From Dehalococcoidia bacterium (GTDB taxonomy: Bacteria > Chloroflexota > Dehalococcoidia > SHYB01), in contig OZ244810.1 in NCBI GenBank assembly GCA_965220155.1, forward strand, positions 626,728 through 690,727: 64,000 nucleotides of DNA. Reading direction: 5' to 3'. The notes under the pieces were generated by a model. It saw only the letters and a list, made by a program, of their open reading frames with translations. It was not told the origin of the DNA and made no database searches. The position numbers and the translations under genes are program-made. Below, piece after piece: positions 17,892-39,573 of the stretch. Each line of letters opens with the position of its first letter. The stretch's first letter is position 1.

Positions 17892-17988
17892 CACGGTCCA
17901 CGCGCATCGGTACGAGCGGTTACCTGCTACGTGCCGTGGGCAAGCGGCTCACGGCTCAGAGGCCAACCGGCTCCAACTCCGTGGGCGA

Positions 17989-21298: not shown

Positions 21299-22246
21299 AT
21301 GCCTCATGCGATAACCTGTGAGGGCCTCACTCGGCGCTTCAAGCGCGTCGTCGCTCTGGATGGGCTCGACCTCCAGGTCGATGAGGGAGCGATCTTCGGA
21401 TTCCTCGGGCCCAATGGCGCTGGAAAGACGACAACGCTGCGTCTGTTGGCCGGCCTCACCAATCCCACTGAGGGACGGGTCTGGATATCGGGCCAGCCGG
21501 TTTCCGCAGGCTCACTCGACCTCCGGTCGTCCATCGGCTACCTTCCGGAAGCGCCGGCGTTCTACGGATGGATGACGGGGCGCGAGTTCCTCAGGTACAC
21601 CGCGGAGCTCTATGGCATGCCGGTCCGTGAGGCGCGTGAACGCGGGGACTCCCTACTGCTCCAAGTTGGCCTCGGCGAGGCGGCCGATCGCCGGATTAGG
21701 GGCTATTCCCGGGGCATGCAGCAGCGGCTGGGTATAGCCCAGGCCATGATGAACCGTCCCCGGGTCTTGCTTTTGGACGAGCCAGCCTCGGCGTTGGACC
21801 CAGTAGGCCGCCGGGACATGCTCGAATTGATAGCGGCTCTAAAGGGTCAGACAACCGTGTTCCTTTCGACGCACATCCTGGGCGACGTCGAGCGAGTCTG
21901 TGACCGGGTGGCCATCATCGACAAAGGCCGTATGGTTGCCCAGGGAAACATCGAAGAACTCAGGGCCCAGCGCCAAGCAAACCGCTTCGTGATCGAGGCT
22001 GAGGAGGACCTTACGCCTGTGGCCGAGGCCCTCGGCGCTGTACCGTGGATCGCTTCCGCAGGCATCGCGCACCGGCAGGGACACCAGGTCCTGGAGGTGG
22101 ATGCGAGAGACCTCGACGAAGCAAAGCGGGCCCTCCCAAGGCTCCTGCTGGAACACGGCGTCACCTTGCTGGGGTATCGGCTGGCGTCGGTGAGCCTGGA
22201 GGACATCTTCGTCGAGCTAGTCGGCGGGGAAGCGATTCAGCCGTGA
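21299..22246 (+). CDS. ABC transporter ATP-binding protein (ABC-2/CcmA-like)
   Basis: MPHAITCEGLTRRFKRVVALDGLDLQVDEGAIFGFLGPNGAGKTTTLRLLAGL...[33 protein letters not shown]... Confidence 0.85.
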   Translation: MPHAITCEGLTRRFKRVVALDGLDLQVDEGAIFGFLGPNGAGKTTTLRLLAGLTNPTEGRVWISGQPVSAGSLDLRSSIGYLPEAPAFYGWMTGREFLRYTAELYGMPVREARERGDSLLLQVGLGEAADRRIRGYSRGMQQRLGIAQAMMNRPRVLLLDEPASALDPVGRRDMLELIAALKGQTTVFLSTHILGDVERVCDRVAIIDKGRMVAQGNIEELRAQRQANRFVIEAEEDLTPVAEALGAVPWIASAGIAHRQGHQVLEVDARDLDEAKRALPRLLLEHGVTLLGYRLASVSLEDIFVELVGGEAIQP

Positions 22247-22977
22247 CCGGCTTTTTTCCTTTGCTGCGAAAGGAGTTGCTCGAGCAGCGACGCACCTGGA
22301 AGTTCCGGACCATGCTCATCGTTTTCGTGCTCATCTCGGTCCTGGTGCCGGTCATCACCCGCATCGTTCTGGCGGCGCTCGGAGATGAGGCCGGGAGGGC
22401 GGAGGCAGAGGGCATGCTCAGGGCCGTCTCCGGAACGTTGTCCGGCGTGGGGATGTTCCTTACGATCATCTTGGGGATGGGCGCAATCGCGAGTGAGCGG
22501 GATAGCGGCACCGCCGCGATGACCTTGAGCAAGCCGGTGACCCGCAGCGCCTTCGTCTCGTCCAAGTCCTTAAGCCTCTCGTTGATCGGGTTCGCCGCTC
22601 TGGCGTCGGCTTCGATCGTCGCTTACCTTCTCGTCCTTGGCTTGTTCGATGCCGTCCCCGTGGGCCGCTACGCCGTCGGCGTGATCGTCGTAGGCGCCTA
22701 TCTCACCTTTGTCGGCATGCTCACTCTGATGTTTAGCGCAGCATTTTCGAACCAACTCGCGGCAGGCGCTACGGCGTTTGCTTCTGTGATCATCATGGGG
22801 GCGCTTAGCAGCATCCCCCACACCGGGCGCTACTTCCCGACATCCGTGCCGGACTACGCCGACAGCATTCACAGCGGGCTGACGAGTGACCGGTGGCCCG
22901 CTCTCGCCATCGCTTGCGGCTGCATCGTGGTGTTTGGCGTCTTATCCTGGCTCATCTTCCGCCGCAAAGAGCTCTAG
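22243..22977 (+). CDS. ABC-2 family transporter permease
   Basis: GTG start overlapping the ATPase stop (GTGA). VTGFFPLLRKELLEQRRTWKFRTMLIVFVLISVLVPV... with 6 predicted TM segments. Confidence 0.75.
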   Translation: MTGFFPLLRKELLEQRRTWKFRTMLIVFVLISVLVPVITRIVLAALGDEAGRAEAEGMLRAVSGTLSGVGMFLTIILGMGAIASERDSGTAAMTLSKPVTRSAFVSSKSLSLSLIGFAALASASIVAYLLVLGLFDAVPVGRYAVGVIVVGAYLTFVGMLTLMFSAAFSNQLAAGATAFASVIIMGALSSIPHTGRYFPTSVPDYADSIHSGLTSDRWPALAIACGCIVVFGVLSWLIFRRKEL

Positions 22978-23064
22978 CCTCGTCCCTGATACGGGGATGG
23001 GAATGCTCATGGCTGCCCGTATGGCGTGGCGGCTCCTCATCCCGCCCTTACCATGTGTCAGGCA

Positions 23065-23096
23065 GGGGCAGGTCTGAGACGGTTGAGACCCGCCCC
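23065..23096. terminator. Possible bidirectional hairpin terminator between convergent genes (GGGGCAGGTCT-loop-AGACCCGCCCC)
   Basis: 11-bp stem with 1 mismatch, between the ABC-2 permease (+, ends 22977) and the crotonase (-, ends 23137). No obvious T-tract. Confidence 0.3.
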
Positions 23097-23136
23097 TACC
23101 CTACAACAGTTCCCGGGGAAGCCGTGGACTGGGCGG

Positions 23137-24033
23137 TTAGGCCGTAACCTTCTCGGCGATCTTCGGCGGGGTCGCCGTCCGCCAATCAGGAACGCCGAAC
23201 TCCGGAGTCCCGGCAGCGCGCTCTCCCTTCGTGACTTCGGCCCAATGCGCGTGGTTGAGCTGATGGATCGTGAAAGAGGCCCCCAGAGCGTTGAAGAAAC
23301 CCTGGTTGTCGACGGTCTGGTTCACGGACTCTTTGATCAGCAGCGACGTTACACTGGGACGCTCCGCGATCCGGCCGGCGAAGGCGAGGGTATCCTGCTC
23401 AAGGGTATCTTGGGGGAAGATCTTGCTTACCATCCCGAGACGGTACGCCTCCTCGGCGTCGATCGAGTCGCCTGTGAGCAAGAGCTCCTTGGCTTTGCGG
23501 GCCCCGAACTCCCACGGGTGGGCGAAGTACTCAAGTCCGCACATCCCGAGCCGTGTGCCAACGACGTCTGCAAAGAGCGCGTTGTCTCCAGCGACGATCA
23601 GATCGCAGCACCACGCCAGCATGAGCCCCGCCGCGTAGCAGGCGCCCTGAACCTGGGCCACGGTGATCTTGCGCAGGTCACGCCACCGCCGGGTGTTGGC
23701 ATAGAAGAAATGCCACTCTTGCAGCATGCGCTGCTCGGCGCCCATCTTGGTCCCGCCATAGCCCTTGAAGCTGTCATGCTGGTTGGGGCCTGGGTTGCGC
23801 TCCTCCATGGACCCCTTCGTCCCCAGGTCGTGGCCCGATGAGAATAGAGGACCCACCCCGCCGAGGATCACGACCCGGACGTCATCGTCGGCTTCGGCAT
23901 GCAGAAATGCCTCGTTCAGGTCGACCAAAAGCCCCCGGCTCTGGGCATTCCTTGTCTCGGGGCGGTTCAACATGATCCGAGCGACCTTACCGTCGTTCAG
24001 GGGCTCGTACGTCACATATTTCCATTCCGGCAT
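23137..24033 (-). CDS. Enoyl-CoA hydratase/isomerase (crotonase) family protein
   Basis: MPEWKYVTYEPLNDGKVARIMLNRPETRNAQSRGLLVDLNEAFLHAEADDDVRVVILGGVGPLFSSGHDLG... Confidence 0.85.
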   Translation of the reverse strand: MPEWKYVTYEPLNDGKVARIMLNRPETRNAQSRGLLVDLNEAFLHAEADDDVRVVILGGVGPLFSSGHDLGTKGSMEERNPGPNQHDSFKGYGGTKMGAEQRMLQEWHFFYANTRRWRDLRKITVAQVQGACYAAGLMLAWCCDLIVAGDNALFADVVGTRLGMCGLEYFAHPWEFGARKAKELLLTGDSIDAEEAYRLGMVSKIFPQDTLEQDTLAFAGRIAERPSVTSLLIKESVNQTVDNQGFFNALGASFTIHQLNHAHWAEVTKGERAAGTPEFGVPDWRTATPPKIAEKVTA

Positions 24034-24114
24034 CGGCTCACCTTCTTTTCCTGGCTACACGCCATACATTGGGTACCCGGAGCGGGCCGCGGCAAGTATA
24101 CCAACTGTATCGGT

Positions 24115-25041
24115 CTAGGTGCCGTGGAAGACAGGAGCGACTGCGCGCGCCAGCTTTTCGTTCTGGGCCAGGGTCTGCTCGGGCGGGCAGCACGGCCGAA
24201 GGACGAACTTCGTCGCCCCTTGGGCCACGTATTCGTTGATCAGCCCAACGATATCTTCCGACGAGCCCAGGCCGCAGTAGGCGGGCGGCGGCAGGTCCTG
24301 CCGGACCCGGAACATGTAGGGTTTGGCCAACTCGGCAGCCTCATCCTGGGAGTCCGCGAAACAGTAGCTGACGATGATACCGTAATGGTCCTCGGGGACC
24401 TGGCGCCCCGCTTCCGCCGCGTATTGCTTGGCCCACTGGATCCCCTGTCCCACCTCCGGCGGCGAGAGGAACGACGTCAACCACCCGTCGCCCATGCGGC
24501 CAACGCGGCGGCAGGCGGCTTCCGTCCGTCCACCGATCCATACCGGAACAGGCTGCTGGTGAGGCTTTGGCGTAACCGTCACCTCGGTGGTGCGGTAGAA
24601 CCGCCCCTCGAACGTCACGCTCTCTTCTTCCCAAAGGCGCCTCATCAGGGTGATGAACTCATCGGTGCGGGGCCCTCGCTGCCTCATCTCAACGCCGCAA
24701 GCCTCGTACTCGTTGGGGGAATCGGTGCCCAGGCCAACGGCAGGCAGCATGCGCCCACCTGACAGGAAATCGACTGTGGCGATCTCTTTCGCCAGGACGG
24801 CTGGATTCCGAAGGGGGAGCGACAAGACGCTGTTCCCAAATTTCATCTTCTTCGTCCGCGCGGCGACGGCGGACATGAAGGTCATGGACTCCATGCTTAT
24901 GGCGGACGAGACGATCCTGTCAGCCAGCCAGATGGAATCGAGCCCAAGGTCTTCGGAGGCATCGATGTATTCCCATAGATAGGCCGGGTCCATGGTGGGG
25001 AAGGGCCAGCCACTGAGCCCGGCCCCGATGCGCACTTTCAT
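24115..25041 (-). CDS. LLM-class (luciferase-like) flavin/F420-dependent oxidoreductase
   Basis: MKVRIGAGLSGWPFPTMDPAYLWEYIDASEDLGLDSIWLADRIVSSAISMESMTFMSAVAARTKKMKFGNSVLSLPLRNPAVLAKEIATVDFLSGGRMLPAVGLG.... Start at the internal ATG of ORF 24115..25218. Confidence 0.8.
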   Translation of the reverse strand: MKVRIGAGLSGWPFPTMDPAYLWEYIDASEDLGLDSIWLADRIVSSAISMESMTFMSAVAARTKKMKFGNSVLSLPLRNPAVLAKEIATVDFLSGGRMLPAVGLGTDSPNEYEACGVEMRQRGPRTDEFITLMRRLWEEESVTFEGRFYRTTEVTVTPKPHQQPVPVWIGGRTEAACRRVGRMGDGWLTSFLSPPEVGQGIQWAKQYAAEAGRQVPEDHYGIIVSYCFADSQDEAAELAKPYMFRVRQDLPPPAYCGLGSSEDIVGLINEYVAQGATKFVLRPCCPPEQTLAQNEKLARAVAPVFHGT

Positions 25042-25318
25042 GCTCCCCTCCTCTGTCCCGAATCTGCCGGCATTATAGACGAAGACCCGCTGCCGACCGG
25101 GCTCGCCATGAAGCACACGACAGGGGTTGCCTGGACCCAGACCAGGATCGAGGCCAGAAGGCCCTCGGGAAGACCCCATGAAACGGTTCCCGCGGTCCGA
25201 GTGCGAACAATCCTCCACTTATTAGGGGCCGGCCTGGAGCGCAGAGAGCGGCTTTGTACCGCGCCAGAGCCCGGACTACCGGGAGAGCAGCATCCACCGC
25301 GCGCGCCACCCCGAGCTG

Positions 25319-26227
25319 TCAGCCCGTGCCAACCCAGACTGAGACCTCAACGGTAGAAGGGGGCCGGCCCCCTCCAGAGACCGTCCCTTTCACCTTCCAG
25401 CTGACAGAGGAATACTGCGTCGAAAGAGTCGGGCAGCAGGGGTTGGGGACCGGCAACTCAAACGGGAACTCCTGGGACACCCCAGCATCGAACAGCACGC
25501 GCCTGGAGAGTGCTGCTTCTGAGACCGTCTCGACGGCGGGTTCCATTCCAGCCAGCTCTTCACGGACCAGGCCCACAGCCACGCTGGAAGGGCCGAAATC
25601 CCGGGCAGGCTTGATACGGAGGGTCCCCCTTAGCACATCAGCCGGACTCGCCGCACCGGCCCGGAGGAACAAGCTCATGGCGCAGTCGGGAAAGTTCTCG
25701 ACGCTATGGGCGCTGGACGCACCACCGTACCTTCTGGCCGGCCGATGCGTCACGACGTTCAAACCCCGCTCAAGCTTGAGGGCCCGCCGGCCGAGCACGT
25801 TGAGAGTGGCGGTCAGTTTCCAGTCGATCCTGACCACTTTGCCCGGCGCTGAAGGGGGTCCCCGGGACGGTATCTCGACCGCGACGTCCTCAATGTAGAG
25901 CCCTTCTCTAACCCCCCGCGCATCCCGAAGAAAGCGGTGCTCCGCGTGGAACGGGACGGCTGTCACCGGCTGTTTTCGCTTTCTCGAGGTCTTGTGGATC
26001 ATCTGCGCCTGTTGCACGCTCGGGTCATAGCTGCCCACGTAGGCGTCGGTCTCCAGCACCTCCCAATAGCTCTCCTGACACCAGACCTCGATGCAGCCAT
26101 CCCGTACATGGATATCCTTCAGCGGCCTGATGGAGACCCTGGTCTTGAACGTCTCGCCAACTTCCACTTGCCTGCCATTGAGGTCGACCTCGATGATCGC
26201 CGGGGCGCGGGACAGTCGTGAAAACAT
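25319..26227 (-). CDS. Hypothetical 302-aa protein (no confident family; possible arrestin/Spo0M-like beta-sandwich)
   Basis: MFSRLSRAPAIIEVDLNGRQVEVGETFKTRVSIRPLKDIHVRDGCIEVWCQESYWEVL...RRYGG.... The ORF sits inside the catabolic cluster with the same orientation as neighbours. Confidence 0.5.
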   Translation of the reverse strand: MFSRLSRAPAIIEVDLNGRQVEVGETFKTRVSIRPLKDIHVRDGCIEVWCQESYWEVLETDAYVGSYDPSVQQAQMIHKTSRKRKQPVTAVPFHAEHRFLRDARGVREGLYIEDVAVEIPSRGPPSAPGKVVRIDWKLTATLNVLGRRALKLERGLNVVTHRPARRYGGASSAHSVENFPDCAMSLFLRAGAASPADVLRGTLRIKPARDFGPSSVAVGLVREELAGMEPAVETVSEAALSRRVLFDAGVSQEFPFELPVPNPCCPTLSTQYSSVSWKVKGTVSGGGRPPSTVEVSVWVGTG

Positions 26228-26245
26228 CGTGCTCGGTCAGCCTCG

Positions 26246-26285
26246 GTTAGTCCGTGCAAACGTTAGCAGTTCGTGCAAACGTTAG
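26246..26285. repeat. Tandem direct repeats (CGTGCAAACGTTAG twice, 19-bp period; GTTAG three times) 20-60 bp upstream of the 25319..26227 gene start
   Basis: gttagtcCGTGCAAACGTTAGcagttCGTGCAAACGTTAGtgag. Confidence 0.45.
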
Positions 26286-26385
26286 TGAGCGCGGCGTCTC
26301 CGAACTGAGTCCCGGCGCGAGGAGGACCGGCCTCGTCGGCATCGGCGATGTCCCTCGTTTGGCCGGATCTCCCCTGGGTTTTCCA

Positions 26386-27717
26386 TCAGGCGATATGCGG
26401 AGCAAAGTCCATCCCCACATGGCCCTCGGACTCCAGCGCCGCGTAGCCCTCCGCGTCGACACCCAGGAGCCCCTGATAGACGTACTCGTTGTGTTCTCCC
26501 AGAGCGACAGGCGGCAGGCGGAATTCCACCGGCGTCTCGGAGAGTTGCCACACGGGGCCCGGGTACCAGTGCGTCCCGGAGTCCGCCTGGGTCATGAGCC
26601 GGAAGAACCCTCTTGCCCACAGGTGCGGGTCCCCCCACAGGTCGCCATCGTTCATGACCGCGCCGGCGGGCACCCCCACCGCCTGTAGGAGGTGCATGAT
26701 TTCTTCCGGCGCGTGCCGGCGCGTCCATTCGGTAATCTTGGGATCGATCTCGTCCTGACGCTTCCATCTCCCGATAGCTATGTCCAACGCAGGGTCCCTG
26801 GACCACTCTGGGGCACCCATCGCTTGCCGCAGCGCCCCCCACTGGCCATCCGTGGCGACGCTGATCGCCACCCACCGGTCGTCGCCCAGGCATGGATAGG
26901 CGCCGTGAGGAGCCATCGAGGGGTGCCGGTTGCCGATGGGCCCACGGACACGTCCATTCATGGTGAAGTCCATGACGGCCGAGGCGATCTGGGGTATCAA
27001 GTTTTCGACCTGGGACATGTCCACCCATTGCCCCCTGCCGGTGCGATCTCGATTGTGTATGGCGGCCACGCAGGCAAACACCATGGCCGCCCCGGCGGCG
27101 GCATCCGAATGCGTCGTCGAAGGAGCGTCGGCAAGATCGCGGTCCGGATAGGAGCGAAGCCAGCCGAATCCGCTAATATCCTCGAACTGACTTCCGAATC
27201 CGCGCTGCTCGGTATAAGGCCCGGACCCTCCCATCCCAGCCGAGCTGACCATGACCAGGTCGGGCTTGACTTTGACCAGATCTTCATACCCCACGCCGAG
27301 TTTGTGCATGATCCCAGGAGTCCCATTTTCGATGACCGCGTCCGAAGCCGAGACCAGCCGCTTGAAGAGCTCGACCCCATCCGGCAGGGTGAGGTCGACG
27401 GTCATCCCAAGCTTGTTGCGGGCATGGGAGTTGAACAAGCCGTTGCGGTTCCAAGGCCGATCGCCCGGCTCTTTATCGACGTAGCTGCCGCCCGTCGTCC
27501 CCATTCCCCGGATGACTTCCCGGCTGGGGCGCGGGATATAGCCCCGCGTGTTCCACTGCCAGTGCTGGGTCGATTCAATGAGGATGACTTCGGCGCCCAG
27601 GTCCGCCAGCATCATGGCAGCATAGGGTCCAGCCCAGGTGTAGGTGTTGCCCAGCACGCGGAGCCCATCGAGAGGAAGGCCGCGGGTGTCGCGGGGTCTT
27701 TCTGTAGGCCGGTTCAA
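26386..27717 (-). CDS. CaiB/BaiF family III CoA-transferase
   Basis: ...LPLDGLRVLGNTYTWAGPYAAMMLADLGAEVILIESTQHWQWNTRGYIP.... TTG start overlapping the stop of the upstream paralog (TTGA). The long N-terminal extension in the track ORF is discounted. Confidence 0.75.
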   Translation of the reverse strand: MNRPTERPRDTRGLPLDGLRVLGNTYTWAGPYAAMMLADLGAEVILIESTQHWQWNTRGYIPRPSREVIRGMGTTGGSYVDKEPGDRPWNRNGLFNSHARNKLGMTVDLTLPDGVELFKRLVSASDAVIENGTPGIMHKLGVGYEDLVKVKPDLVMVSSAGMGGSGPYTEQRGFGSQFEDISGFGWLRSYPDRDLADAPSTTHSDAAAGAAMVFACVAAIHNRDRTGRGQWVDMSQVENLIPQIASAVMDFTMNGRVRGPIGNRHPSMAPHGAYPCLGDDRWVAISVATDGQWGALRQAMGAPEWSRDPALDIAIGRWKRQDEIDPKITEWTRRHAPEEIMHLLQAVGVPAGAVMNDGDLWGDPHLWARGFFRLMTQADSGTHWYPGPVWQLSETPVEFRLPPVALGEHNEYVYQGLLGVDAEGYAALESEGHVGMDFAPHIA

Positions 27718-28928
27718 ACGATCCCCGCCTGGCGAAGCGCAACAACCTCTGCGGCGGAGAACCCCAAACGGCCCCGAAGGACCTGGGAGGTGTGCTGCCC
27801 CAACATCGGCGCGGGCCGCCAGTCCCCGGAGGGAGTCTCCATCATCTTGAACGGGGGCCCCGGATACTTCACTGGTCCGGTGGCGGAATGGCAAACTTCC
27901 TGAAAGTAACCCCGGGAGACGAAATGCGGGTCCTCCGTTACGTCCTGAATAGTGAAGAGGGCACCCGAAAGTATCCGCGCTCCGCGGGCTGCCTCTAGAA
28001 ACTCACGCCGCGTCTTGTCCACGACCCAGGAGTAGAAGTGGACCATGAAGTCCTCTCGCGCTTCCGAATCGAACTGGCCCTGCCGACTGTTGAATCTGGG
28101 CTCTTCGGCCAGCTCCGGCATGCCGATCATCGCCGCCGAGTTGGGGAAGTACTGAAGGCCTCCCCAGAGATGCACGAACCCATCCGCGCAGGGGAACAGC
28201 CCGCAGGGATAGCCGGTGCTACGGGACGCCGGCTCGGTCTTCGCCATCGACTCACCGTTGTACTGATAGCTCGTCAGGCCGGTCAGCCGGCGGTCCACGT
28301 CCGCGGCCTGCGTCTCATGGATCGAGCAGTCGACGTGCTGGCCAATGCCGTGGCGGCGGCTGCCATGGAACGCCATCATGGTGACGGCAGCCGCGGAGTA
28401 CCCGGCTTGGAACTGGGTCGTCTCTCCCGGGAGGCGGAGGGGATAGTCACCCAGGTTGCCGGTACAGTGCATCGGCCCTCCCATGGCATTCAGGACCATG
28501 TCGGAGGCCAGGAAATCGCGGTATGGGCCGGTCTGACCAAAGTTGGAGATCGAGGTCATGATGAGGGAGGGGTTGATGTTTCTCAGGGTGCCATAGTCCA
28601 GCCCCAGCCGCTCCATGACGCCCGGGCGGAAGCTTTCCACGAGGATATCGGCGTCCGCCACCAGCTCTTTGAGGAGTCGCTTCCCAGGGGCGGTCTTGAG
28701 GTCGAGAACGATGCCGCGCTTGTTGGTGTTCAGATGCAGGAAGAGACCGCTCGTGTCCAGCGCCGGTCTGTCGTGCCGAAACGGCGCCATGTTGCGCGCA
28801 GGATCACCCCAGGGAGGCTCCACCTTCACGACGTCGGCGCCGTAATCAGCCAGGAACTTGGTGCAGGCAGGCCCGGCAACGCGGTGCGTGAGGTCCAGCA
28901 CCGACACGTCTGAAAGGGCCTGGTCCAT
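27714..28928 (-). CDS. CaiB/BaiF family III CoA-transferase (paralog)
   Basis: MDQALSDVSVLDLTHRVAGPACTKFLADYGADVVKVEPPWGDPARNMAPF... Confidence 0.85.
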   Translation of the reverse strand: MDQALSDVSVLDLTHRVAGPACTKFLADYGADVVKVEPPWGDPARNMAPFRHDRPALDTSGLFLHLNTNKRGIVLDLKTAPGKRLLKELVADADILVESFRPGVMERLGLDYGTLRNINPSLIMTSISNFGQTGPYRDFLASDMVLNAMGGPMHCTGNLGDYPLRLPGETTQFQAGYSAAAVTMMAFHGSRRHGIGQHVDCSIHETQAADVDRRLTGLTSYQYNGESMAKTEPASRSTGYPCGLFPCADGFVHLWGGLQYFPNSAAMIGMPELAEEPRFNSRQGQFDSEAREDFMVHFYSWVVDKTRREFLEAARGARILSGALFTIQDVTEDPHFVSRGYFQEVCHSATGPVKYPGPPFKMMETPSGDWRPAPMLGQHTSQVLRGRLGFSAAEVVALRQAGIV

Positions 28929-28935
28929 CAGGGGG

Positions 28936-29739
28936 TCAGTCGGACCGCGGAGCGGGGGCCCACCGGGGTTTCCGCTTTTCGGCGAAGGCCCTGCCGCCCT
29001 CCTGGGCATCCGGATGACCCCCATGGGCGTTCAGGATCTCCCACCCATGCTCCACGGCATCGTGGAGGCCGTAGTTGAGTCCCTCCCAGATCGCCTTTTT
29101 CGATGCCATGAGCGTGGCCGGGGAGCTCTCCATGATGGCCCTGGCCGTATCCCTGGCCCGCTCCATGAGGCGCTCTTTGGGGACCACGTCGCCGACCATG
29201 CCGACCTCGTACGCCCGTTGGGCGCTGATCCGCTCGGCGCCGCCCAGCATGACCATCCGCATAATGGTTTCCAGCGGCATCCGGCGGGCAAGGGCGATGG
29301 GCTCGGTGACCGATGGGCGGCCGACCCGGACGTGGGTGTCGAAGAAGGTGGCGTGCTCGGCGGCGATGACCAGGTCGCTGTCCGCTATAAAGTGAAGTCC
29401 GCCTCCCGTGACCATCCCGTTGACTGCAGTGATGACCGGCTTCCAGCAGCTGTTTTGGAGCGCCGTAAACAGCAACTCAAAGTGAGTGTCAGTCTTGTTT
29501 TGCGCGGGATGTCCCTCGCCGTCCGCCGAGGCGGCCATATCAAAGCCTGTGCAGAAGGACCGGTCCCCCGCCGCCGTGACGACGGCGACCACGATCTCCT
29601 GATCCTGCTTGATGTCCCCCCAGACATCCGCCAACTCCTGGTTCATGCGGTAGTTGATGGCATTCAGGCGGTCGGGCCGATTGAGGGTAATGGTAGCGAT
29701 GCCCTCGCTCTTGTCGTACAGCAAGGTCTCAAGATGCAT
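28936..29739 (-). CDS. Enoyl-CoA hydratase/isomerase (crotonase) family protein
   Basis: MHLETLLYDKSEGIATITLNRPDRLNAINYRMNQELADVWGDIKQDQEIVVAVVTAAGDRSFCTGFDM... Confidence 0.85.
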   Translation of the reverse strand: MHLETLLYDKSEGIATITLNRPDRLNAINYRMNQELADVWGDIKQDQEIVVAVVTAAGDRSFCTGFDMAASADGEGHPAQNKTDTHFELLFTALQNSCWKPVITAVNGMVTGGGLHFIADSDLVIAAEHATFFDTHVRVGRPSVTEPIALARRMPLETIMRMVMLGGAERISAQRAYEVGMVGDVVPKERLMERARDTARAIMESSPATLMASKKAIWEGLNYGLHDAVEHGWEILNAHGGHPDAQEGGRAFAEKRKPRWAPAPRSD

Positions 29740-29806
29740 ACAGCGGACTCCTTCGCCGGAAGAGGTCGGTATCAGGCTGGGACGTCAGAGAACAGCGGGC
29801 ATTATG

Positions 29807-30925
29807 TCACAAGCCCGCGTCAAGCCTGTAAAGGCGCGCGGCGTTGTCCCGGACGATCTGTCGCTTCTCCTCCGGGGGAATGTCCTTGAACTCATATGCC
29901 ACCGCCCGCTGTGAGTCCGGCCAATTGGAGTTCGTGTGCGGGTAATCCGTAGACCACATGATGCGATCGACGCCTATTCGATGCCGGTTGTCCAAGCCGT
30001 GGGCGTCGTTTATGAACGTGGCCCAGACATGCTCTCGGAAGGACTCACCCGGCATTCGCTTTAGCTGGATGCCGGCCCGGAAACGTCTCCGAAGGAAGTT
30101 GTCATCCAGTACCTGCAGGTAGTGCGGTATCCACCCGATCCCGGTCTCGACCGCAACGATGCGTAGACCGGAGTGCCGCTCGAACAGACCGTCGTAGAGC
30201 ATCTCGGCGATGGGACGGAACACGCCGGTGCCCATATCTATGAGGCCCGATGAAGTGAGGTACGCCAGGTCGCTGCCCCACTTTTGCGGCCCCTCTCCGA
30301 AGAAGCCGAAATGGATGTGCACCGGGTATTCCCAGTCTTCGACTTCAGACCAAAAGCGGTCGTCTTCTGGGGAGGGTTCCGGGTTCCCGCTGGGGTATGT
30401 GCTGATGACGAACCCCCTGGCGCCTCGTTCCGCGACCCGGCGCCACTCGAGGAGGGTATCTTCGATCCCGGTGACCGGAGAGATCGGCATCCCGATGAGC
30501 CGATCCGGGGCCACAGAGCAGAACTCGTGGATCCAATCGTTGTAGGCCCGAACGCAGGCGAGCTGAAGGTCCCGGTCGCCGCCGTACCCGTGCGCTCCGC
30601 CCAGGGCGACTCCGGGGTAGATGACCTGGGCCTGGATCATGTCCAGCTCCATGTCCTCCAGCCGAGCGTGAGGGTCGTAGCTGGCAGGCCGGACCTCGGA
30701 CCATCTAGCGCCTTCGCGGTTATAGGCGGTCACGTCGACCCCGGCAAGGGCCGTCTGGACAGGCGTAATCCGCTTCCCGCCATCGTAGGACCAGGCGATC
30801 CTGCCGCCATCCAGCTCCACCAACTTGGGGGCGCGCTCCTTGAGAGCCGAGGGAACTCTGGACTGCCACACGTCGGCGGGCTCGTTTACGTGGCTGTCGG
30901 CATCAATCATCCGGTATTCCACCAT
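29807..30925 (-). CDS. Amidohydrolase-2 family protein
   Basis: MVEYRMIDADSHVNEPADVWQSRVPSALKERAPKLVELDGG...HIHFGFFGEG...STDYPHTNSNWPDS.... Start at the internal ATG of ORF 29807..31066. Confidence 0.8.
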   Translation of the reverse strand: MVEYRMIDADSHVNEPADVWQSRVPSALKERAPKLVELDGGRIAWSYDGGKRITPVQTALAGVDVTAYNREGARWSEVRPASYDPHARLEDMELDMIQAQVIYPGVALGGAHGYGGDRDLQLACVRAYNDWIHEFCSVAPDRLIGMPISPVTGIEDTLLEWRRVAERGARGFVISTYPSGNPEPSPEDDRFWSEVEDWEYPVHIHFGFFGEGPQKWGSDLAYLTSSGLIDMGTGVFRPIAEMLYDGLFERHSGLRIVAVETGIGWIPHYLQVLDDNFLRRRFRAGIQLKRMPGESFREHVWATFINDAHGLDNRHRIGVDRIMWSTDYPHTNSNWPDSQRAVAYEFKDIPPEEKRQIVRDNAARLYRLDAGL

Positions 30926-31046
30926 GCTCCATCTCCCCCTTCGGATGAGTGCCGTATTATACCCAACCCTTGGACCGGCACCGGTAGAGCACCCCTGGAG
31001 CCCTTGTGCGGTATCATCCGCCCAGTCTCGAGAGAGGTGCTCCAAG

Positions 31047-31919
31047 ATGAAATTCGGGTTCAGCATTTTCCCAACCCAGGGCGGCCCTCAGGGCCTGGCG
31101 GCCATCGCCAGGAAAGCCGACGAGCTCGGCTACGAGTCGATCTTCTCCGCCGACCATCTCGTTTATCCGACAGAGATGCCCCGCACCTACCCCTATTCAG
31201 CAGACGGCACCTCGCCGATCAGCCCTGATGCCCCGAGGTATGACGCCTGGGTGCTATTGGCCTACCTGGCGGCGGTTACGACCCGAATCAATCTGGGGAC
31301 CAATGTCTTCATCCTGCCTCTTCGCGACCCCATCGTCACCGCGCGGGCCGTCACAACGCTGGATAACGTCTCCAACGGTCGGTTGCTGATGGGGGTCGGC
31401 GTCGGTTGGCTGGAAGAGGAGTTCCAGATTGTTGGCCGAGACTTCGCTACTCGCGGCCCCGTCGCCGACGAGATGATCGATCTCCTCAGGGCGCTGTGGA
31501 CCCAGCGATCTGTCGATTTCAACGGCAAGTATCTGACGTACAGCGGATTCATGTTCGAGCCCAAGCCGGTGAGTAAACCGCACCCTCCCATCCTCATCGG
31601 GGGCACCACGGGACCGGCACTCCGGCGGGCGGCCCGCCTCGGCGACGGCTGGGCCAGCACGGGGGACGACCTGGAGACGTTAAAGCGGCGGATCGCCAGG
31701 CTCCACTCCATGCGCAAGGAACACGGAAGGGATACCCTCCCGTTCAGCGTCACCGCCAGCGCTCCCGAAGCGAACGCGGATACGGTGCGGCGCTATCAGG
31801 AGGCGGGCGTAGACCGGATGCTCATTACTCCGTCAACGGCTGGCCGACAGGCAACGGCCAAAGAAGTCATCGAAGGGCTGGAGCGCTTCGCGGAAGAGGT
31901 GATGGCCAAGGCCGCGTAG
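31047..31919 (+). CDS. LLM-class flavin/F420-dependent oxidoreductase
   Basis: MKFGFSIFPTQGGPQGLAAIARKADELGYESIFSADHLVYP...NLGTNVFILPLRDPIVTARAVTTLDNVSNGRLLMGVGVGWLEEEF... Confidence 0.8.
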   Translation: MKFGFSIFPTQGGPQGLAAIARKADELGYESIFSADHLVYPTEMPRTYPYSADGTSPISPDAPRYDAWVLLAYLAAVTTRINLGTNVFILPLRDPIVTARAVTTLDNVSNGRLLMGVGVGWLEEEFQIVGRDFATRGPVADEMIDLLRALWTQRSVDFNGKYLTYSGFMFEPKPVSKPHPPILIGGTTGPALRRAARLGDGWASTGDDLETLKRRIARLHSMRKEHGRDTLPFSVTASAPEANADTVRRYQEAGVDRMLITPSTAGRQATAKEVIEGLERFAEEVMAKAA

Positions 31920-32060
31920 AGGATGGTTACCTCGTGGGTTGGTCGGCCAGAATACGATACCGTTGCGAACCATGGGGGAAGGGTTGTGCCGTGGGGGCCC
32001 CGGGCCCGCAACAGATGTGGTATAAGATAGGGGACTCACGATTGGAGGCCCGTACCGGCA

Positions 32061-32390
32061 ATGGTCGAGTTCCGGAAAGTAGCCAGGGTGGGGGATGTCC
32101 CGTCCGGCCGAGGCAAGTGCGTAATGGGCCCATTTGAGAAACCAATGGCCCTATTCAACATTGGCGGGGACTTCTACGCCACCAACTACGTTTGCCCCCA
32201 CATGGGAGGACCCATTGGCGAGGGGGTGCTAAGCGGCACCGTCGTCGCGTGTCCATGGCACGGGTGGACCTTCGACGTGACGACTGGAAAGGCGGACCAC
32301 GAGGGAGGGCACGCAATCTCCGCGTATGAGACGAAGATCGAAAACGGCTTCGTCTACGTCGGATGGCTCAGGAAGGGGTCCGAAGGCTGA
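32061..32390 (+). CDS. Rieske [2Fe-2S] domain protein (small, NirD/ferredoxin-like)
   Basis: ...YVCPHMGGPIGEGVLSGTVVACPWHGWTFD... has the CxH...CxxH Rieske ligands. GGAGG RBS 12 nt upstream. Confidence 0.8.
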   Translation: MVEFRKVARVGDVPSGRGKCVMGPFEKPMALFNIGGDFYATNYVCPHMGGPIGEGVLSGTVVACPWHGWTFDVTTGKADHEGGHAISAYETKIENGFVYVGWLRKGSEG

Positions 32391-32806
32391 TGCCGGCCGC
32401 TTCGTTGACCAAGACCTTCGAGTTCTCCGCATCCCACCGGTACTATCGGGATGATTGGTCCTTGGAACGCAACCTGCAGACATTTGGCAAGTGCGTCAAC
32501 GACAATGGCCACGGCCACAATTACCTGCTGGAGGTCACCGTGCGGGGGCCTATCGATCCGGTGACCGGCATGGTCATGAACCTGGTGGATATCAAGGCGT
32601 CGGTCGAGGATGTCCTCGAGCAGTTCGACCACCGTCACTTGAACAAAGACCTGAGCTATTTCGACGAGCGGATCCCCACGACCGAGAACCTGGTAGTAAC
32701 CCTCTGGGACCTCATAGATCCTCGATTACCGGATGCCGCTCGCCTCTGCGCTCTGCGGCTCCATGAGGATGAGGACCTGTTTGTCGACTATCACGGGGGC
32801 GCCTGA
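32390..32806 (+). CDS. 6-pyruvoyl-tetrahydropterin synthase / QueD family protein (copy 1)
   Basis: MPAASLTKTFEFSASHRYYRDDWSLERNLQTFGKCVNDNGHGHNYLLEVTVRG...HRHLNKDL has the PTPS C..HGH motif. TGATG overlap with the Rieske gene. Confidence 0.8.
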   Translation: MPAASLTKTFEFSASHRYYRDDWSLERNLQTFGKCVNDNGHGHNYLLEVTVRGPIDPVTGMVMNLVDIKASVEDVLEQFDHRHLNKDLSYFDERIPTTENLVVTLWDLIDPRLPDAARLCALRLHEDEDLFVDYHGGA

Positions 32807-33237
32807 TGGACCCCGGCAACGTGTACCTGTCCCGGCGCTACCGCTTCTCCGCATCTCACCGCCTCTATGCCCAGGGGTTGTCAGACGCGGAGAACCGGCG
32901 GGTCTTCGGGAAGTGCGCGAACGACAACGGCCACGGCCACAACTACAAGCTGATCGTCACCGTCGGCGGCGAGATGGACCCTGAGACGGGCATGTGCTTC
33001 GACCTGGGCCTTCTCGACAGCATCGTCGACGAGCAACTGGTCCAACGGTATGACCACAAGCACCTGAACCTCGACGTCGAAGACTACGTCGACCGCGTGC
33101 CGACGGGAGAGAACATCGTCCGTCGGTCGTGGGAGATCCTCTCGGACGCCATCCCAGGCGGCAAGCTCCGCCGGCTGAGACTGATCGAGACCCGAGACAA
33201 TGCCTTCGAGTACTGCGGCGAACTTCCCGCGGCATGA
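32806..33237 (+). CDS. 6-pyruvoyl-tetrahydropterin synthase / QueD family protein (copy 2)
   Basis: MDPGNVYLSRRYRFSASHRLYAQGLSDAENRRVFGKCANDNGHGHNYKLIVTVGG...HKHLNLDV. TGATG overlap with copy 1. Confidence 0.8.
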   Translation: MDPGNVYLSRRYRFSASHRLYAQGLSDAENRRVFGKCANDNGHGHNYKLIVTVGGEMDPETGMCFDLGLLDSIVDEQLVQRYDHKHLNLDVEDYVDRVPTGENIVRRSWEILSDAIPGGKLRRLRLIETRDNAFEYCGELPAA

Positions 33238-33953
33238 CCACGCTGAAGGATAAGGCTTGCCTCATCACCGGCGCCTCGAGCGGCATTGGGGCCGCAGTCG
33301 CCCGCCGGTTTGCCAAAGAGGGCGCCCGGCTGTGCCTCGTGGCGAGGTCGACCGACCGCCTGAGGGCGCTGGCCCAGGAGCTGTCGTCCCCCGAGGGGAC
33401 CCCTCTGGTGGTGGAGGCTGACGTGGGCCACGAGCAGCAGGTAAAGAATGCCGTATCCCAAGCGATGGCATCCCAGGGCGGCATCGATGTCCTGGTGAAT
33501 TGCGCGGGGACGGTCTACTTCACCCCCATCGACGAAACCGACGAGAGTCAGTGGAACGACGTTATCGACTCCAACCTGAAGGGGACCTTCCTCTTCTGCA
33601 AGCACGTGGTGCCCGGGATGCTCGAGCGAGGGTGCGGCGATATCGTGAATATCGGCAGCATCGCATCCCACCAGGGCTTCGAGAACTCGACGGCGTACTG
33701 CGCGGCGAAGCATGGCGTGCTCGGGTTCTCGCGGGCGCTGGCCCTTGAAGTGCGCAAGCGCGGGCTCCGGGTGACCACCGTATCTCCGGGCTCGGTGAAT
33801 ACGCCGCTCTGGGACCCCATGGAGTGGACCCCGGACCGCTCCAAGATGCTCCATGCCGACGAGGTCGCCGAGGCGGTCCACGCCGCGTTGACCGTTTCGT
33901 CAACAGCGGCCGTCGATGAGTTGATCGTAATGCCCCAGGAAGGGGTGCTGTGA
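33234..33953 (+). CDS. Short-chain dehydrogenase/reductase (SDR); candidate sepiapterin/pteridine reductase by context
   Basis: MTTLKDKACLITGASSGIGAAVARRFAKEGARL...NCAG...Y..K. ATGA overlap with PTPS copy 2. Confidence 0.8.
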   Translation: MTTLKDKACLITGASSGIGAAVARRFAKEGARLCLVARSTDRLRALAQELSSPEGTPLVVEADVGHEQQVKNAVSQAMASQGGIDVLVNCAGTVYFTPIDETDESQWNDVIDSNLKGTFLFCKHVVPGMLERGCGDIVNIGSIASHQGFENSTAYCAAKHGVLGFSRALALEVRKRGLRVTTVSPGSVNTPLWDPMEWTPDRSKMLHADEVAEAVHAALTVSSTAAVDELIVMPQEGVL

Positions 33954-36313: not shown

Positions 36314-37111
36314 TCATGCGAACAGGGCGCGGCTCATGCCCCCGCTGACGCTGAAGATTTCGCCGGTGATGGATACGCCCTTGGGCGAAGCCAGGAACGC
36401 AACCACAAACGCCACTTCGCTGGCATCGACGATACGCCGGATGGCGTTGTCGCGGCCCACGTCGGCCACGACCTCGTCGTAGGTCCGACCTTCGCTGCGC
36501 GCACGCTCTTCAAATCTATCTCGGAGCATCTCGATCATGGTGGCGCCAGGATGGACGGCATTGGCGGTTATTCCGTACTGGCCGAGCTCGTCGGACATTG
36601 TCTTGGTCAGATGGGCCACGGCGACGTTTCGGGCGCCGGTACTGTAGGTCCCCGAGCGGCGGGCCGACATACCGCCGATGTTGACGATCCGCCCCCAGCC
36701 TTTTTGCTTCATATACGGCACGCACGATCGGGAGAACCGTAGGTAGCCCATGAACTTCGTGTTGAGATCGTCCAACACGTCATCGTCCGTTACCGTCTCG
36801 ATGGGCCCTCGCGCCAGGCCGCCCGGGACGCCCGCGTTGTTGACCAGAATATCGATGCCCCCGAGGCCATCGGCCGCCGCCTTGACCGTAGCCTCGACCT
36901 GCTCCAGCTTTGAAACGTCGCAGACGATGGGTAGGAGCTTTCGGCCAGTCTCAGCCGAAACCTCCGCGGCCGCTGTCTCGAGCTGCTCCTTGGTCCGGGA
37001 GCAGATGGCGACGTCGACGCCCTCTTGCGCCAACACTCGCGCTACCGCCTTGCCGATCCCGCGGCCGCCTCCGGTCACCATCGCTTTCTTCCCACGCAGC
37101 TCAAGGTCCAC
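36314..37111 (-). CDS. SDR family oxidoreductase (FabG-like)
   Basis: MDLELRGKKAMVTGGGRGIGKAVARVLAQEGVDVAICSR...NNAG... Confidence 0.85.
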   Translation of the reverse strand: MDLELRGKKAMVTGGGRGIGKAVARVLAQEGVDVAICSRTKEQLETAAAEVSAETGRKLLPIVCDVSKLEQVEATVKAAADGLGGIDILVNNAGVPGGLARGPIETVTDDDVLDDLNTKFMGYLRFSRSCVPYMKQKGWGRIVNIGGMSARRSGTYSTGARNVAVAHLTKTMSDELGQYGITANAVHPGATMIEMLRDRFEERARSEGRTYDEVVADVGRDNAIRRIVDASEVAFVVAFLASPKGVSITGEIFSVSGGMSRALFA

Positions 37112-37182
37112 AGCTCATCCCCCTATGTCAAAGTCTCACGGTTTCCAAGCCGTCTATCCTCCGCGCTTGTTCACAATCCTGG

Positions 37183-37983
37183 CTATGCGTAGACAGCGCG
37201 CGTCGTCCCGCCTCCCGCCGCGATGACCTCCCCAGTCACCGCCCCCGACTTGGGCGAAGCGAGGAACAGGGCCAGGTTGGCGATCTCCTCCACGCTGGCA
37301 AGCCGCCGGATGGAATTGCTCTGGGCCACGGCCCTCTCCGCCTCGTCCAGGGAGACGCCTTGCCGCTGGGCCCGGGTGTTGACCAGATTGTCGACGTACC
37401 CGGTGTCACGAGTCGGGCCGGGGTGGATCACGTTGACCGTGATGCCGGAAGGCCCCAACTCGTCCGCCAGGGTCTTGCTCAAGTGCACTATGGCGATGTT
37501 TCGGACGCCGCCGCTGTAGCTCCCCGAGCTCCGGGCGGAGAGACCTCCGATGTTGACGATCCGCCCCCAACCCTGTTTCTCCATGATTGGCGCCGCAGCC
37601 CGTGCGCATCGAAGATAGCCCATGAACTTCGTGTTGAGGTCCTCCATCATCCCCTCATCGGTGACGGTAGGCAGGGGACCGAGCGCCAAGCCTCCGGCGT
37701 GGCCAGCGTTGTTCACCAGGATGTCGAGGCGCCCAAGAGTCGAAACAACCTGGTCCACCATTGAGTCGACCTGCTCCGGCACAGAGACATCACTCTCGAT
37801 CGGCAGCACCTTTCTCCCTGTCGTCTCCGACAGCTCTTTGGCCGCCATCTCGAGGTCGCTCTTGTTCCTGGCGCAGACCGCCACGTCAGCGCCTTCCCGG
37901 GCCAACCCCAGGGCAATAGCTTTGCCGATGCCCTTGCTGCCGCCGGTGACCAATGCAGCCTTGCCAGCCAGTTCCAGGTCCAT
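37183..37983 (-). CDS. SDR family oxidoreductase (tandem paralog of 36314..37111)
   Basis: MDLELAGKAALVTGGSKGIGKAIALGLAREGADVAVCARNKSDLEMAAKELSETTGRKVLPIESDVS... is about 55% identical to its neighbour. Confidence 0.85.
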   Translation of the reverse strand: MDLELAGKAALVTGGSKGIGKAIALGLAREGADVAVCARNKSDLEMAAKELSETTGRKVLPIESDVSVPEQVDSMVDQVVSTLGRLDILVNNAGHAGGLALGPLPTVTDEGMMEDLNTKFMGYLRCARAAAPIMEKQGWGRIVNIGGLSARSSGSYSGGVRNIAIVHLSKTLADELGPSGITVNVIHPGPTRDTGYVDNLVNTRAQRQGVSLDEAERAVAQSNSIRRLASVEEIANLALFLASPKSGAVTGEVIAAGGGTTRAVYA

Positions 37984-38128
37984 GGACCCTACCTCCGCGG
38001 GAATGCAGGAGGCATCGTAGCATCGGAGCCGGAGCTGCCGCCACTCGATTCAGGGACCCACCAAACGGATGGTCCGCCAACTCGCCCCGGAGGTCCAACC
38101 AGCCCATGCTAGAATGGCGAGGTGCCCC

Positions 38129-38203
38129 GCGGGGGTAGCTCAGTGGTAGAGTACCTGCCTTCCAAGCAGGCTGTCGCGGGTTCGATCCCCGTCCCCCGCT
38201 CCA
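38129..38203 (+). tRNA. tRNA-Gly (anticodon UCC), CCA encoded
   Basis: GCGGGGGTAGCTCAGTGGTAGAGTACCTGCCTTCCAAGCAGGCTGTCGCGGGTTCGATCCCCGTCCCCCGCTCCA. 7-bp acceptor stem, anticodon loop CUUCCAA, T-loop GGTTCGATCC. Confidence 0.85.
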
Positions 38204-38547
38204 CTCTCCAACAGGTTCAAAGAAGTGCGGCTGCCGCTCATTCGTTCGATAGTGCTAACGCCTTTGCTCACGTCTTCGCGGCTGGTTGGCTTCTCCTGGG
38301 ACGGCTCAGGAGGCTGCCAGGACGGCTAGCCCCTGGGACCAGCCGCGCTCCGAAGCGAGGCCCCGAGATGCGCCCCGACCATAGCCCGGCTTCGTCCTGC
38401 TCTGCCGCTCAATACGGTTGCCGCGACGCTGGGATGCTTCGGCGCCCGTTCATGAACTCGCATCGTGTAAGAGGCGCTTTCAAGTATCATTTGCACGCTG
38501 ACTTCCCCGGGCACTGCCCAGGAACTGCTCTGCGCTTGGAGACAACC

Positions 38548-39573
38548 GTGGCCGGCATCCCCGTCGTCATTGCCTCGCCCCTGGGCGATGAGGTTATCCC
38601 GAAGCTCCAGGCTGTTTCGCCCCGGCTCGAAATTCGCAAGGCCGAGGAGCTCGTCCGGAACGAGATCAGGCTGGCCCGAGGCTCCCCGGGCAGCCCCGAA
38701 CACGCTCGGGCTATCGGAGCCCTCGACGCAGTCCTCCATGATGCAGAGGTCATGCTCTCCGGCTTCCGTCTTCCCGAGAACGTCCCGGCCCGAACGCCAA
38801 AGCTCAGGTGGGTGCAGGCCATGGCCGCGGGCGTCGAGCGGTTCCTGACCTCCGGCATCATAGAGGCCGGCGTCACGCTGACCAACGCCAAGGGCATAGC
38901 CGCGACCCCTATTGCCGAATGGGTCCTCGGCGCCATGCTCATGTTCTCGAAGCGCATGCCCGCTCACTTCGTCCGCAAGGCCCAGCATGACTACCAGCGG
39001 GCCGACGTCCTGCCGTTCAGCCTCGAGGGCAAAACGGTCGGCGTCCTTGGACTCGGCGCCATTGGGGGCGAGATCGCTCGGCTGTCGAAAGCCGTCGGCA
39101 TGACCGTGCTCGCAACGAGAAAGAATCCCTCGGGAGACCTTCCGCCCTGCGTTGACGCCTTGTTCGGGCCAGAGGGCACTCGAGACCTGCTCACCGAAAG
39201 CAACTTCGTCGCCGTCGCTCTCCCCCTTACCGGCGAGACCAGGGCTTTCATCGGCGAGGCCGAGCTCGAGGCCATGCGCCCAGCTTCCTACCTCATGAAT
39301 GTCGGACGCGGGCCCATCATCGACGAGGCTGCGTTGGTCCGCGCTCTTCAGGATGGCAAGATCGCTGGCGCCGCCCTCGATGTCTTCGAAAAGGAACCCT
39401 TGCCGCCTGACAGCCCATTGTGGGACCTCGAAAATGTCATCTACTCCCCGCATATCTCCGGGGAAGTCGACGACTATGACGACCGTGTGGTCAGCCTGTT
39501 CTCCCGGAACCTCGCCCGGTACGTCAACGGTGAGACCCTACTCAATGTCGTCGACCGGGACAAGGGTTACTGA
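38548..39573 (+). CDS. D-isomer-specific 2-hydroxyacid dehydrogenase family protein (NAD-binding)
   Basis: ...GKTVGVLGLGAIGGEIARLSKAVGMTVLATRK...NVGRGPIIDEAALVRALQDGKIAGAALDVFEKEPLP.... GTG start with a GGAGA RBS. The 5' part of track ORF 38122..39573 overlaps the tRNA and is an artefact. Confidence 0.75.
   Translation: MAGIPVVIASPLGDEVIPKLQAVSPRLEIRKAEELVRNEIRLARGSPGSPEHARAIGALDAVLHDAEVMLSGFRLPENVPARTPKLRWVQAMAAGVERFLTSGIIEAGVTLTNAKGIAATPIAEWVLGAMLMFSKRMPAHFVRKAQHDYQRADVLPFSLEGKTVGVLGLGAIGGEIARLSKAVGMTVLATRKNPSGDLPPCVDALFGPEGTRDLLTESNFVAVALPLTGETRAFIGEAELEAMRPASYLMNVGRGPIIDEAALVRALQDGKIAGAALDVFEKEPLPPDSPLWDLENVIYSPHISGEVDDYDDRVVSLFSRNLARYVNGETLLNVVDRDKGY

Follow-up and report, generated by a model that had tools for sequence, protein, structure and literature searches.

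A Dehalococcoidia Rieske-PTPS-PTPS-SDR operon that probably encodes a tetrahydrobiopterin-type pterin pathway with a two-module PTPS-II

In a 64,000-nucleotide stretch of the genome of a Dehalococcoidia bacterium (Chloroflexota; contig OZ244810.1, positions 626,728 to 690,727; referred to here as the window), four consecutive plus-strand genes at positions 32061 to 33953 encode a Rieske [2Fe-2S] protein, two homologs of 6-pyruvoyl-tetrahydropterin synthase (PTPS), and a short-chain dehydrogenase/reductase (SDR). Our analyses indicate that this locus is probably a four-gene operon for the synthesis of a tetrahydrobiopterin (BH4)-type unconjugated pterin by a heteromeric PTPS-II and a Chlorobium-type sepiapterin reductase, with the Rieske protein not needed for this synthesis. 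The operon most likely represents a lineage-specific variant of the BH4-type pathway already known in bacteria (i.e., a fairly ordinary cofactor route). We regard it as a variant because its PTPS modules are split into two genes, its host belongs to the class Dehalococcoidia, and a Rieske gene is attached to it. The first-pass annotation of the window had also placed PTPS and a sepiapterin-reductase-like SDR at the core of a pterin operon, a proposal that is supported by the PTPS-II residues, the SDR subfamily match, and the conservation of the gene block described below.

The first gene (32061 to 32390; 109 aa; Pfam PF00355, E = 7.8e-15) encodes a small, soluble Rieske [2Fe-2S] ferredoxin-type protein. 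It is followed by the first and second modules of a two-module PTPS-II, namely, PTPS-A (32390 to 32806; 138 aa; PF01242, E = 1.4e-31) and PTPS-B (32806 to 33237; 143 aa; PF01242, E = 7.4e-29), and by a classical SDR of the Chlorobium-type sepiapterin reductase subfamily (33234 to 33953; 239 aa; PF00106 [adh_short], E = 5.5e-58). All four genes are joined by start/stop overlaps, as the first-pass annotation had described. At the Rieske/PTPS-A junction (TGATG), the TGA at 32388 to 32390 overlaps the ATG at 32390 to 32392; at the PTPS-A/PTPS-B junction (also TGATG), the TGA at 32804 to 32806 overlaps the ATG at 32806 to 32808; and at the PTPS-B/SDR junction (ATGA), the ATG at 33234 to 33236 overlaps the TGA at 33235 to 33237. 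The same block was found in roughly a dozen separate Dehalococcoidia-type contigs, the genes on either side differing among them; because the block recurs in these approximately 12 contigs while its flanks change, the arrangement is far beyond chance. For a wider comparison, we used a profile of PTPS-A-like proteins to gather 80 loci from species-representative genomes of approximately nine phyla (i.e., Dehalococcoidia, Chloroflexales/Herpetosiphon, Nitrospirota, Acidobacteriota [56 loci], Calditrichota, Thermodesulfobacteriota, Planctomycetia, Dadabacteria, and a deltaproteobacterium).

The diagnostic motifs of related enzymes are C-x5-HGH for PTPS-II, C-x3-HGH for QueD, and E-x-x-HGH for PTPS-III (Zallot et al., PMC5041015). 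Both PTPS proteins of the window carry C-x5-HGH (CVNDNGHGH in PTPS-A and CANDNGHGH in PTPS-B), which sharpens the C..HGH motif reported in the first-pass annotation; the two proteins are 44% identical (58/132), higher than the earlier estimate of about 35%. Residues H16, C35, H41, H43, D80, H81, and E126 of PTPS-A correspond to H23, C42, H48, H50, D88, H89, and E133 of rat PTPS, and both modules read H-C-H-H-D-H-E at these rat columns (i.e., the full zinc and catalytic set). In the rat enzyme, we take His23, His48, and His50 to be the zinc ligands, Asp88-His89 to be catalytic, and Glu133 to be pterin anchoring. Cys42 of rat PTPS is the catalytic base (PMC2229834). Both proteins align with mammalian PTPS over their whole length. 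Among PDB structures, PTPS-A matched rat PTPS (1b66) with an E value of 2e-34, versus about 1e-10 for QueD structures (best, 8e-11), and PTPS-B matched human PTPS (3i2b) with an E value of 5.2e-38, versus about 5e-5 to 1e-4 for QueD structures. By these residues, which the first-pass annotation had named as the way to classify the copies, and by these similarities, both belong to the PTPS-II subfamily of COG0720 rather than to QueD.

The homologs themselves are named differently at their sources, i.e., "6-carboxytetrahydropterin synthase" or, in combined form, [quoted passage not shown] and the NCBIfam QueD model does match the two window proteins, at 66 and 55 bits. If these labels were right, PTPS-A and PTPS-B would be QueD paralogs (i.e., 6-carboxy-tetrahydropterin synthases) for queuosine/7-deazaguanine synthesis. 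However, both scores lie under the cut-off of 89, the Cys position of the QueD motif C-x3-HGH is occupied by Asn in both modules, and the PDB matches to QueD are 20 to 30 orders of magnitude weaker than those to PTPS. Moreover, no queC, queE, or queF gene stands beside the PTPS pair in the loci with called-gene Pfam annotation, and none is a recurrent neighbor across the 80 genome loci. The motif, the PDB comparisons, and the genomic context led us to reject the QueD/7-deazapurine reading, which we hold to be highly improbable. For the window, the outcome is a corrected annotation, with PTPS-II in place of 6-carboxytetrahydropterin synthase. PTPS-II-type homologs (e.g., P0084, P0100, and P0103) carry the NCBI QueD name despite their signature motif, probably as the result of systematic misannotation.

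The duplication of PTPS had been taken as a hint of a modified pterin or a 7-deazapurine. Our comparison suggests a simpler explanation. Two PTPS modules, encoded by tandem genes or fused, were present in the fixed order A to B in all 80 loci. They were fused in one reading frame in Chloroflexales/Herpetosiphon (7 of 7 loci; L013-L017, L021, and L024) and in Nitrospirota (4 of 4; L023, L025, L026, and L043), giving proteins of approximately 278 aa; in the 278-aa protein of L025, Pfam resolves two PTPS stretches. Fused A~B proteins are also frequent among metagenomic homologs. In a neighbor-joining tree of 164 modules together with rat and human PTPS, the first modules and the second modules formed two pure clades of 82 each, with window PTPS-A and PTPS-B falling, as expected, in the "module 1" and "module 2" clades, respectively. 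The pure clades and the fixed order thus point to one ancient duplication. Since the two-module A-to-B arrangement is the standard architecture of bacterial PTPS-II, the duplication is no sign of new chemistry. Kong et al. (2006; FEBS Lett 580:4900) reportedly hold a single- or dual-domain bacterial PTPS responsible for BH4 synthesis. PTPS-II of Synechococcus PCC 7942 has canonical PTPS activity in vitro (PMC5041015).

The two modules have lost catalytic residues in a complementary manner. Across 82 loci, neither module varies at the zinc histidines or at Glu133. In module A, His89 is never lost, Asp88 is changed only once (D to E), and Cys42 is missing in 7 of the 82 loci; module B always keeps Cys42 and has lost His89 in 26 and Asp88 in 12. 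Six of the seven losses of Cys42 in module A coincide with the loss of His89 in module B of the same locus. Burgisser et al. (1995) reportedly describe an "intersubunit catalytic triad" in PTPS. Because complementary residue decay and repeated gene fusion are what an obligate heteromer predicts, the data point to an obligate A/B heteromer, the active sites of which would join the Cys of B with the Asp-His of A. The gene fusions in two lineages and the complementary triad losses likewise favor the view that the A and B modules may physically be one enzyme. The pattern of decay predicts an obligate A3B3 enzyme that needs mixed active sites only. The full residue set is present in both modules of the window and of 9 of the 10 scored Dehalococcoidia-type loci; the 10th locus has Glu for Asp88 in module A.

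The genes neighboring the PTPS pair in other phyla provided clues about its pathway. In a tblastn-based census, in which the identities of GTP cyclohydrolase I (GCH-I) and GT2 were confirmed by Pfam, the 56 Acidobacteriota loci contained, in this order, a GT2 (49 loci) or GT4 (3 loci) gene, A, B, GCH-I (55 loci), and an SDR (21 loci). The seven Chloroflexales/Herpetosiphon loci contained, again in order, a fused A~B gene, GCH-I (all seven), and an SDR (six); the four Nitrospirota loci contained a fused A~B gene and GCH-I (three); and the two Thermodesulfobacteriota loci contained A, B, and an SDR. The GCH-I gene lies directly 3' of the PTPS pair in 55 of the 56 Acidobacteriota loci and in all 7 Chloroflexales loci, and an SDR of the same subfamily lies 3' of the pair in many phyla. 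These neighbors place the PTPS pair within a GTP-to-pterin pathway across phyla. The 10 Dehalococcoidia-type loci of the census contained Rieske (8 loci), A, B, and SDR (all 10) genes and no GCH-I gene.

The Acidobacteriota loci deserve separate mention. A compact GT2 (or GT4)-PTPS-A-PTPS-B-GCH-I-(SDR) cluster occurs in 55 of the 56 sampled Acidobacteriota genomes (L028-L091; e.g., GT2 at L061:4609-5703 and GCH-I at L071:6840-7445). This suggests that soil Acidobacteria may widely make a pterin, possibly a glycosylated one. The GT4 variant matched BH4 glucosyltransferase weakly (E = 2e-7; rank of about 23).

The adjacency of GCH-I in other phyla suits folate synthesis as well as biopterin synthesis, and one feature of the window proteins leans in the same direction. 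Both modules read D-x-x-HGH, with Asp where PTPS-III has its glutamate (D38 of PTPS-A, codon at 32501 to 32503; D40 of PTPS-B, codon at 32923 to 32925). This Asp occurs in the window only, i.e., in 1 of 82 sequences in each module clade, nearly all relatives having Pro. The pair might then act like PTPS-III in a folate bypass of dihydroneopterin aldolase, cutting the side chain to yield 6-hydroxymethyl-dihydropterin, with the SDR being unrelated. However, E-x-x-HGH is absent and the PTPS-II catalytic Cys is kept in both modules, an SDR resembling C. tepidum sepiapterin reductase (cSR) is co-conserved across phyla, and no folB, folK, or folP gene stands beside the pair in the annotated loci. 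We give the folate bypass only a slim chance. The parallel Pro-to-Asp change in the two paralogs could reflect gene conversion or active-site coadaptation, and it might shift the product spectrum in this species.

For the second enzyme of the proposed BH4-type pathway, we aligned 16 cluster-linked SDRs from several phyla and built a profile from them. They align without large gaps and have in common the Ser-Tyr-Lys residues, a "DTP(L/I)W" motif, and a "(L/M)PxxGxL" tail. The window SDR carries TGASSGIG (i.e., the TGxxxGIG NADP-binding motif), and its S142, Y155, and K159 are shared by every sequence of the cluster alignment. All 16 cluster SDRs matched NCBIfam PRK07454 with the best E value of any family, and this family is also the top match of the window SDR. 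When the profile was compared with PDB sequences, cSR (2bd0; Chlorobium tepidum) ranked 2nd of 572 (206 bits). The window SDR is 31% identical to cSR from end to end (115 bits); for comparison, a neighboring SDR of the window scored 58 bits in a partial alignment. Residues F96 and W193 of the window SDR align with Phe-99 and Trp-196 of cSR, which are indispensable for sepiapterin/substrate binding (PMC7520308), and the Trp-196 equivalent is nearly invariant across the cluster SDRs. The case for a sepiapterin reductase role of the window SDR appears good but not decisive.

The first-pass annotation had read the Rieske gene as a hint of a hydroxylated pterin, an idea that the features of the protein do not favor. 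The cluster ligands are intact (C45-P-H47 [CPH] and C64-P-W-H67 [CPWH]); C45, H47, and H67 never vary among 22 aligned sequences, and C64 hardly does. The PDB entries most similar to the protein are ferredoxin components from ring-hydroxylating oxygenase systems (e.g., CarAc; 1vck; E = 1.3e-13), and the matches to NCBIfam equivalogs all fall far under the cut-offs. The protein is a single domain, with no oxygenase or mononuclear-iron catalytic domain; because it is without a catalytic domain, it cannot alone hydroxylate a pterin. No terminal oxygenase or ferredoxin reductase was found in the window by Pfam scans, in the four-gene block, or in the flanks of related loci. Two homologs (P0012 and P0057) read "TRPWHGW" instead of "CPWHGW," so that one cluster-ligand Cys is gone, truly or by sequence error.

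Could the Rieske protein nevertheless be a true pathway component, passing electrons to or from the pterin, or to some oxygenase, and thereby giving a modified or hydroxylated pterin or a pterin-linked redox cycle? Its intact ligands and the overlap of its stop codon with the start codon of PTPS-A would suit such a role, as would its position 5' of PTPS-A in about 12 of 13 distinct Dehalococcoidia-type loci (the window, L010, L011, L018, L019, L020/L172, L022, L092, L118, L174-176, and L177/L178), among which the Rieske proteins are 45 to 100% identical and the flanks differ. Set against this are the ferredoxin-type, single-domain structure of the protein, the missing oxygenase and reductase genes, and the distribution of the gene. 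None of 70 PTPS-II loci outside Dehalococcoidia has a Rieske gene, and the homologs with 56 to 67% identity from Polyangia, Acidobacteriia, and one further genome lie away from PTPS genes. Among 80 metagenome loci of the Rieske family, 2 adjoin PTPS and 78 lie elsewhere, beside heterogeneous genes (e.g., those for a TPR protein [7 loci], LipA-like [6 loci] and DsbD-like [6 loci] proteins, DUF309, EVE, and, twice, QueC). PTPS-linked and unlinked members are intermixed in the family tree. Finally, L012/L173, which has the same upstream synteny (AsnC-ACAD-HIT) as L010, keeps PTPS-PTPS-SDR but has CHASE3 and MCP genes in place of the Rieske gene. Because the Rieske gene is linked only in Dehalococcoidia, has been lost in L012/L173, and is mostly unlinked elsewhere, we consider it a lineage-specific addition that is dispensable for keeping the pathway. 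A role as a pathway component is thus unlikely. The more specific idea of a dedicated Dehalococcoidia pterin redox partner, which would link a BH4-type cofactor to an iron-sulfur chain or to an oxygenase, seems equally doubtful to us; if it were true, the exchange of electrons between the Rieske protein and a tetrahydropterin would be a pterin-ferredoxin coupling of a kind not described in bacteria. A hydroxylated pterin or a deazapurine as the product is unsupported.

Other searches around the Rieske family yielded little. Its heterogeneous neighbors allowed no conclusion about a conserved partner that would reveal its function. PTPS homologs of 207 to 242 aa included no Rieske-PTPS fusion, all being fused A~B PTPS proteins or fragments thereof, and a 144-aa gene coupled to the Polyangia Rieske homolog, considered as a hidden PTPS/T-fold protein, had no Pfam match and an hhalign probability of 0.05 against PTPS. 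A distant Rieske homolog adjoins a QueC gene in L115 (L115:5522-6352), and in L004/L005, another (L004:4451-5155) adjoins genes for a Vut_1/YhhQ-type queuosine-precursor transporter and methyltransferases. Our literature search turned up no relevant work connecting PTPS or BH4 with Rieske proteins, Dehalococcoidia, or Acidobacteria.

On the basis of these results, we propose the following predicted pathway for the window. GTP cyclohydrolase I, presumably encoded elsewhere in the genome, would supply 7,8-dihydroneopterin triphosphate. PTPS-A and PTPS-B would form a zinc-dependent heteromeric PTPS-II, probably A3B3, that converts this substrate to 6-pyruvoyl-tetrahydropterin. The SDR, with NADPH, would then reduce both side-chain carbonyls to give a stereoisomer of tetrahydrobiopterin, possibly the L-threo form. 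The Rieske protein would be unneeded for the pterin chemistry and is most likely a Dehalococcoidia-specific, coexpressed electron-carrier accessory or a syntenic passenger.

Several observations weigh against this proposal. The GCH-I gene is missing from every Dehalococcoidia locus that we examined, as well as from the window, in which a tblastn search with GCH-I from related loci gave no match at an E value of <0.01 and Pfam scans of 40 other open reading frames (ORFs) were likewise empty, in agreement with the first-pass annotation; the supply of dihydroneopterin triphosphate is therefore assumed. The Pfam scans also found no pterin-dependent enzyme in the window (i.e., aromatic amino acid hydroxylase, NOS, or carbinolamine dehydratase). 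In the PDB, the SDR profile matched clavaldehyde dehydrogenase best (219 bits), ahead of cSR, and 31% identity is too low for substrate specificity to be read from it. The Phe-99 equivalent varies among the cluster SDRs, and the stereochemistry of the product is therefore not predictable. Lastly, the Rieske gene is translationally coupled to PTPS-A and accompanies it in most of the Dehalococcoidia-type loci, which argues against its being a mere passenger.

The extent of the operon was judged from its neighbors and signals. A luciferase-like monooxygenase gene lies 5' of the operon, with 141 nt between its end and the Rieske start, and an ABC-2 permease gene of the other strand lies 3'; these neighbors delimit the transcription unit as 32061 to 33953. 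The start of the 109-aa Rieske frame is backed by the conservation of the N terminus among homologs and by a Shine-Dalgarno-like GGAGG at 32044 to 32048 (+), read from the sequence 12 nt ahead of the ATG. No promoter was called ahead of the Rieske gene by a consensus scan that demanded both hexamers, and the terminator scan was likewise uninformative; by eye, a weak candidate extended -10 element (TGgTATAAg; 32019 to 32027, +) lies 33 nt 5' of the Rieske start codon. An Rfam search found no riboswitch or other RNA element near the operon. In a near-identical strain (L001, 1-9159), the four genes are conserved at 97 to 100% protein identity and the downstream synteny is intact, while 5' of the Rieske gene, genes for a type I restriction-modification system, a HicAB toxin-antitoxin pair, and a DDE transposase stand in place of the window sequence.

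The remainder of the window contains several other features. The regions at 16425 to 31919 and 36314 to 37983 form a dense run of paralogous catabolic families, including three Amidohydro_2 proteins; two each of luciferase-like monooxygenases, enoyl-CoA hydratases, and additional SDRs; and one family III CoA-transferase and one SnoaL-like protein. A fragment of a DDE transposase gene lies at 14268 to 15095. Two tRNA genes were found (38129 to 38200, +; 50804 to 50895, -); the first overlaps the overextended N terminus of the ORF at 38122 to 39573, and the 2-hydroxyacid dehydrogenase gene therefore starts later. A T-box leader at 55896 to 56140 (+; 99.9 bits, above the gathering score) lies directly 5' of an isoleucyl-tRNA synthetase gene (56162 to 59479).

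Bacterial BH4-type pterin synthesis is documented mainly in cyanobacteria and green sulfur bacteria. Our analyses suggest that a BH4-type pathway with a two-module PTPS is widespread, occurring in Dehalococcoidia, Chloroflexales, Acidobacteriota, Nitrospirota, and other phyla. The components of the window operon each resemble a known system and differ from it in specific ways. Like the Rieske ferredoxins CarAc, BphF, and TodB and the NirD-like small Rieske proteins, the window Rieske protein is a single domain of approximately 100 to 110 aa with CxH...CxxH; unlike CarAc, BphF, and TodB, it has no oxygenase or reductase partner nearby and bears a subfamily signature of its own (CPHMGGPL...CPWHGWTFD...GWLK). 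The window SDR belongs to the same SDR subfamily as the C. tepidum enzyme, which makes L-threo-tetrahydrobiopterin, and has the Ser-Tyr-Lys residues and the equivalents of Phe-99 and Trp-196, although its identity to that enzyme is only 31% and the Phe-99 equivalent varies in other cluster SDRs.

The PTPS pair resembles the bacterial PTPS-II enzymes ("bPTPS-II") known from green sulfur bacteria and from cyanobacteria, among them the dual-domain form of Synechococcus sp. PCC 7942, in its C-x5-HGH motif, zinc histidines, and catalytic residues, in having two PTPS modules per functional unit, and in its tie to BH4-type pterin synthesis. However, the dual-domain form is one polypeptide, whereas the window modules are encoded by separate, translationally coupled genes, and the window host is a nonphototrophic member of the Dehalococcoidia class of Chloroflexota. 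The equivalence of the window pair to the cyanobacterial dual-domain enzyme rests on the fused forms in Chloroflexales and Nitrospirota. The likeness to mammalian PTPS (rat 1b66 and human 3i2b) extends from end to end (E values of 1e-34 to 1e-38), with the zinc, triad, and pterin-anchoring residues all kept. While the mammalian enzyme is a homohexamer encoded by one gene, the window pair, as two 44%-identical paralogs in a phylum-wide fixed order, would imply a heterohexamer.

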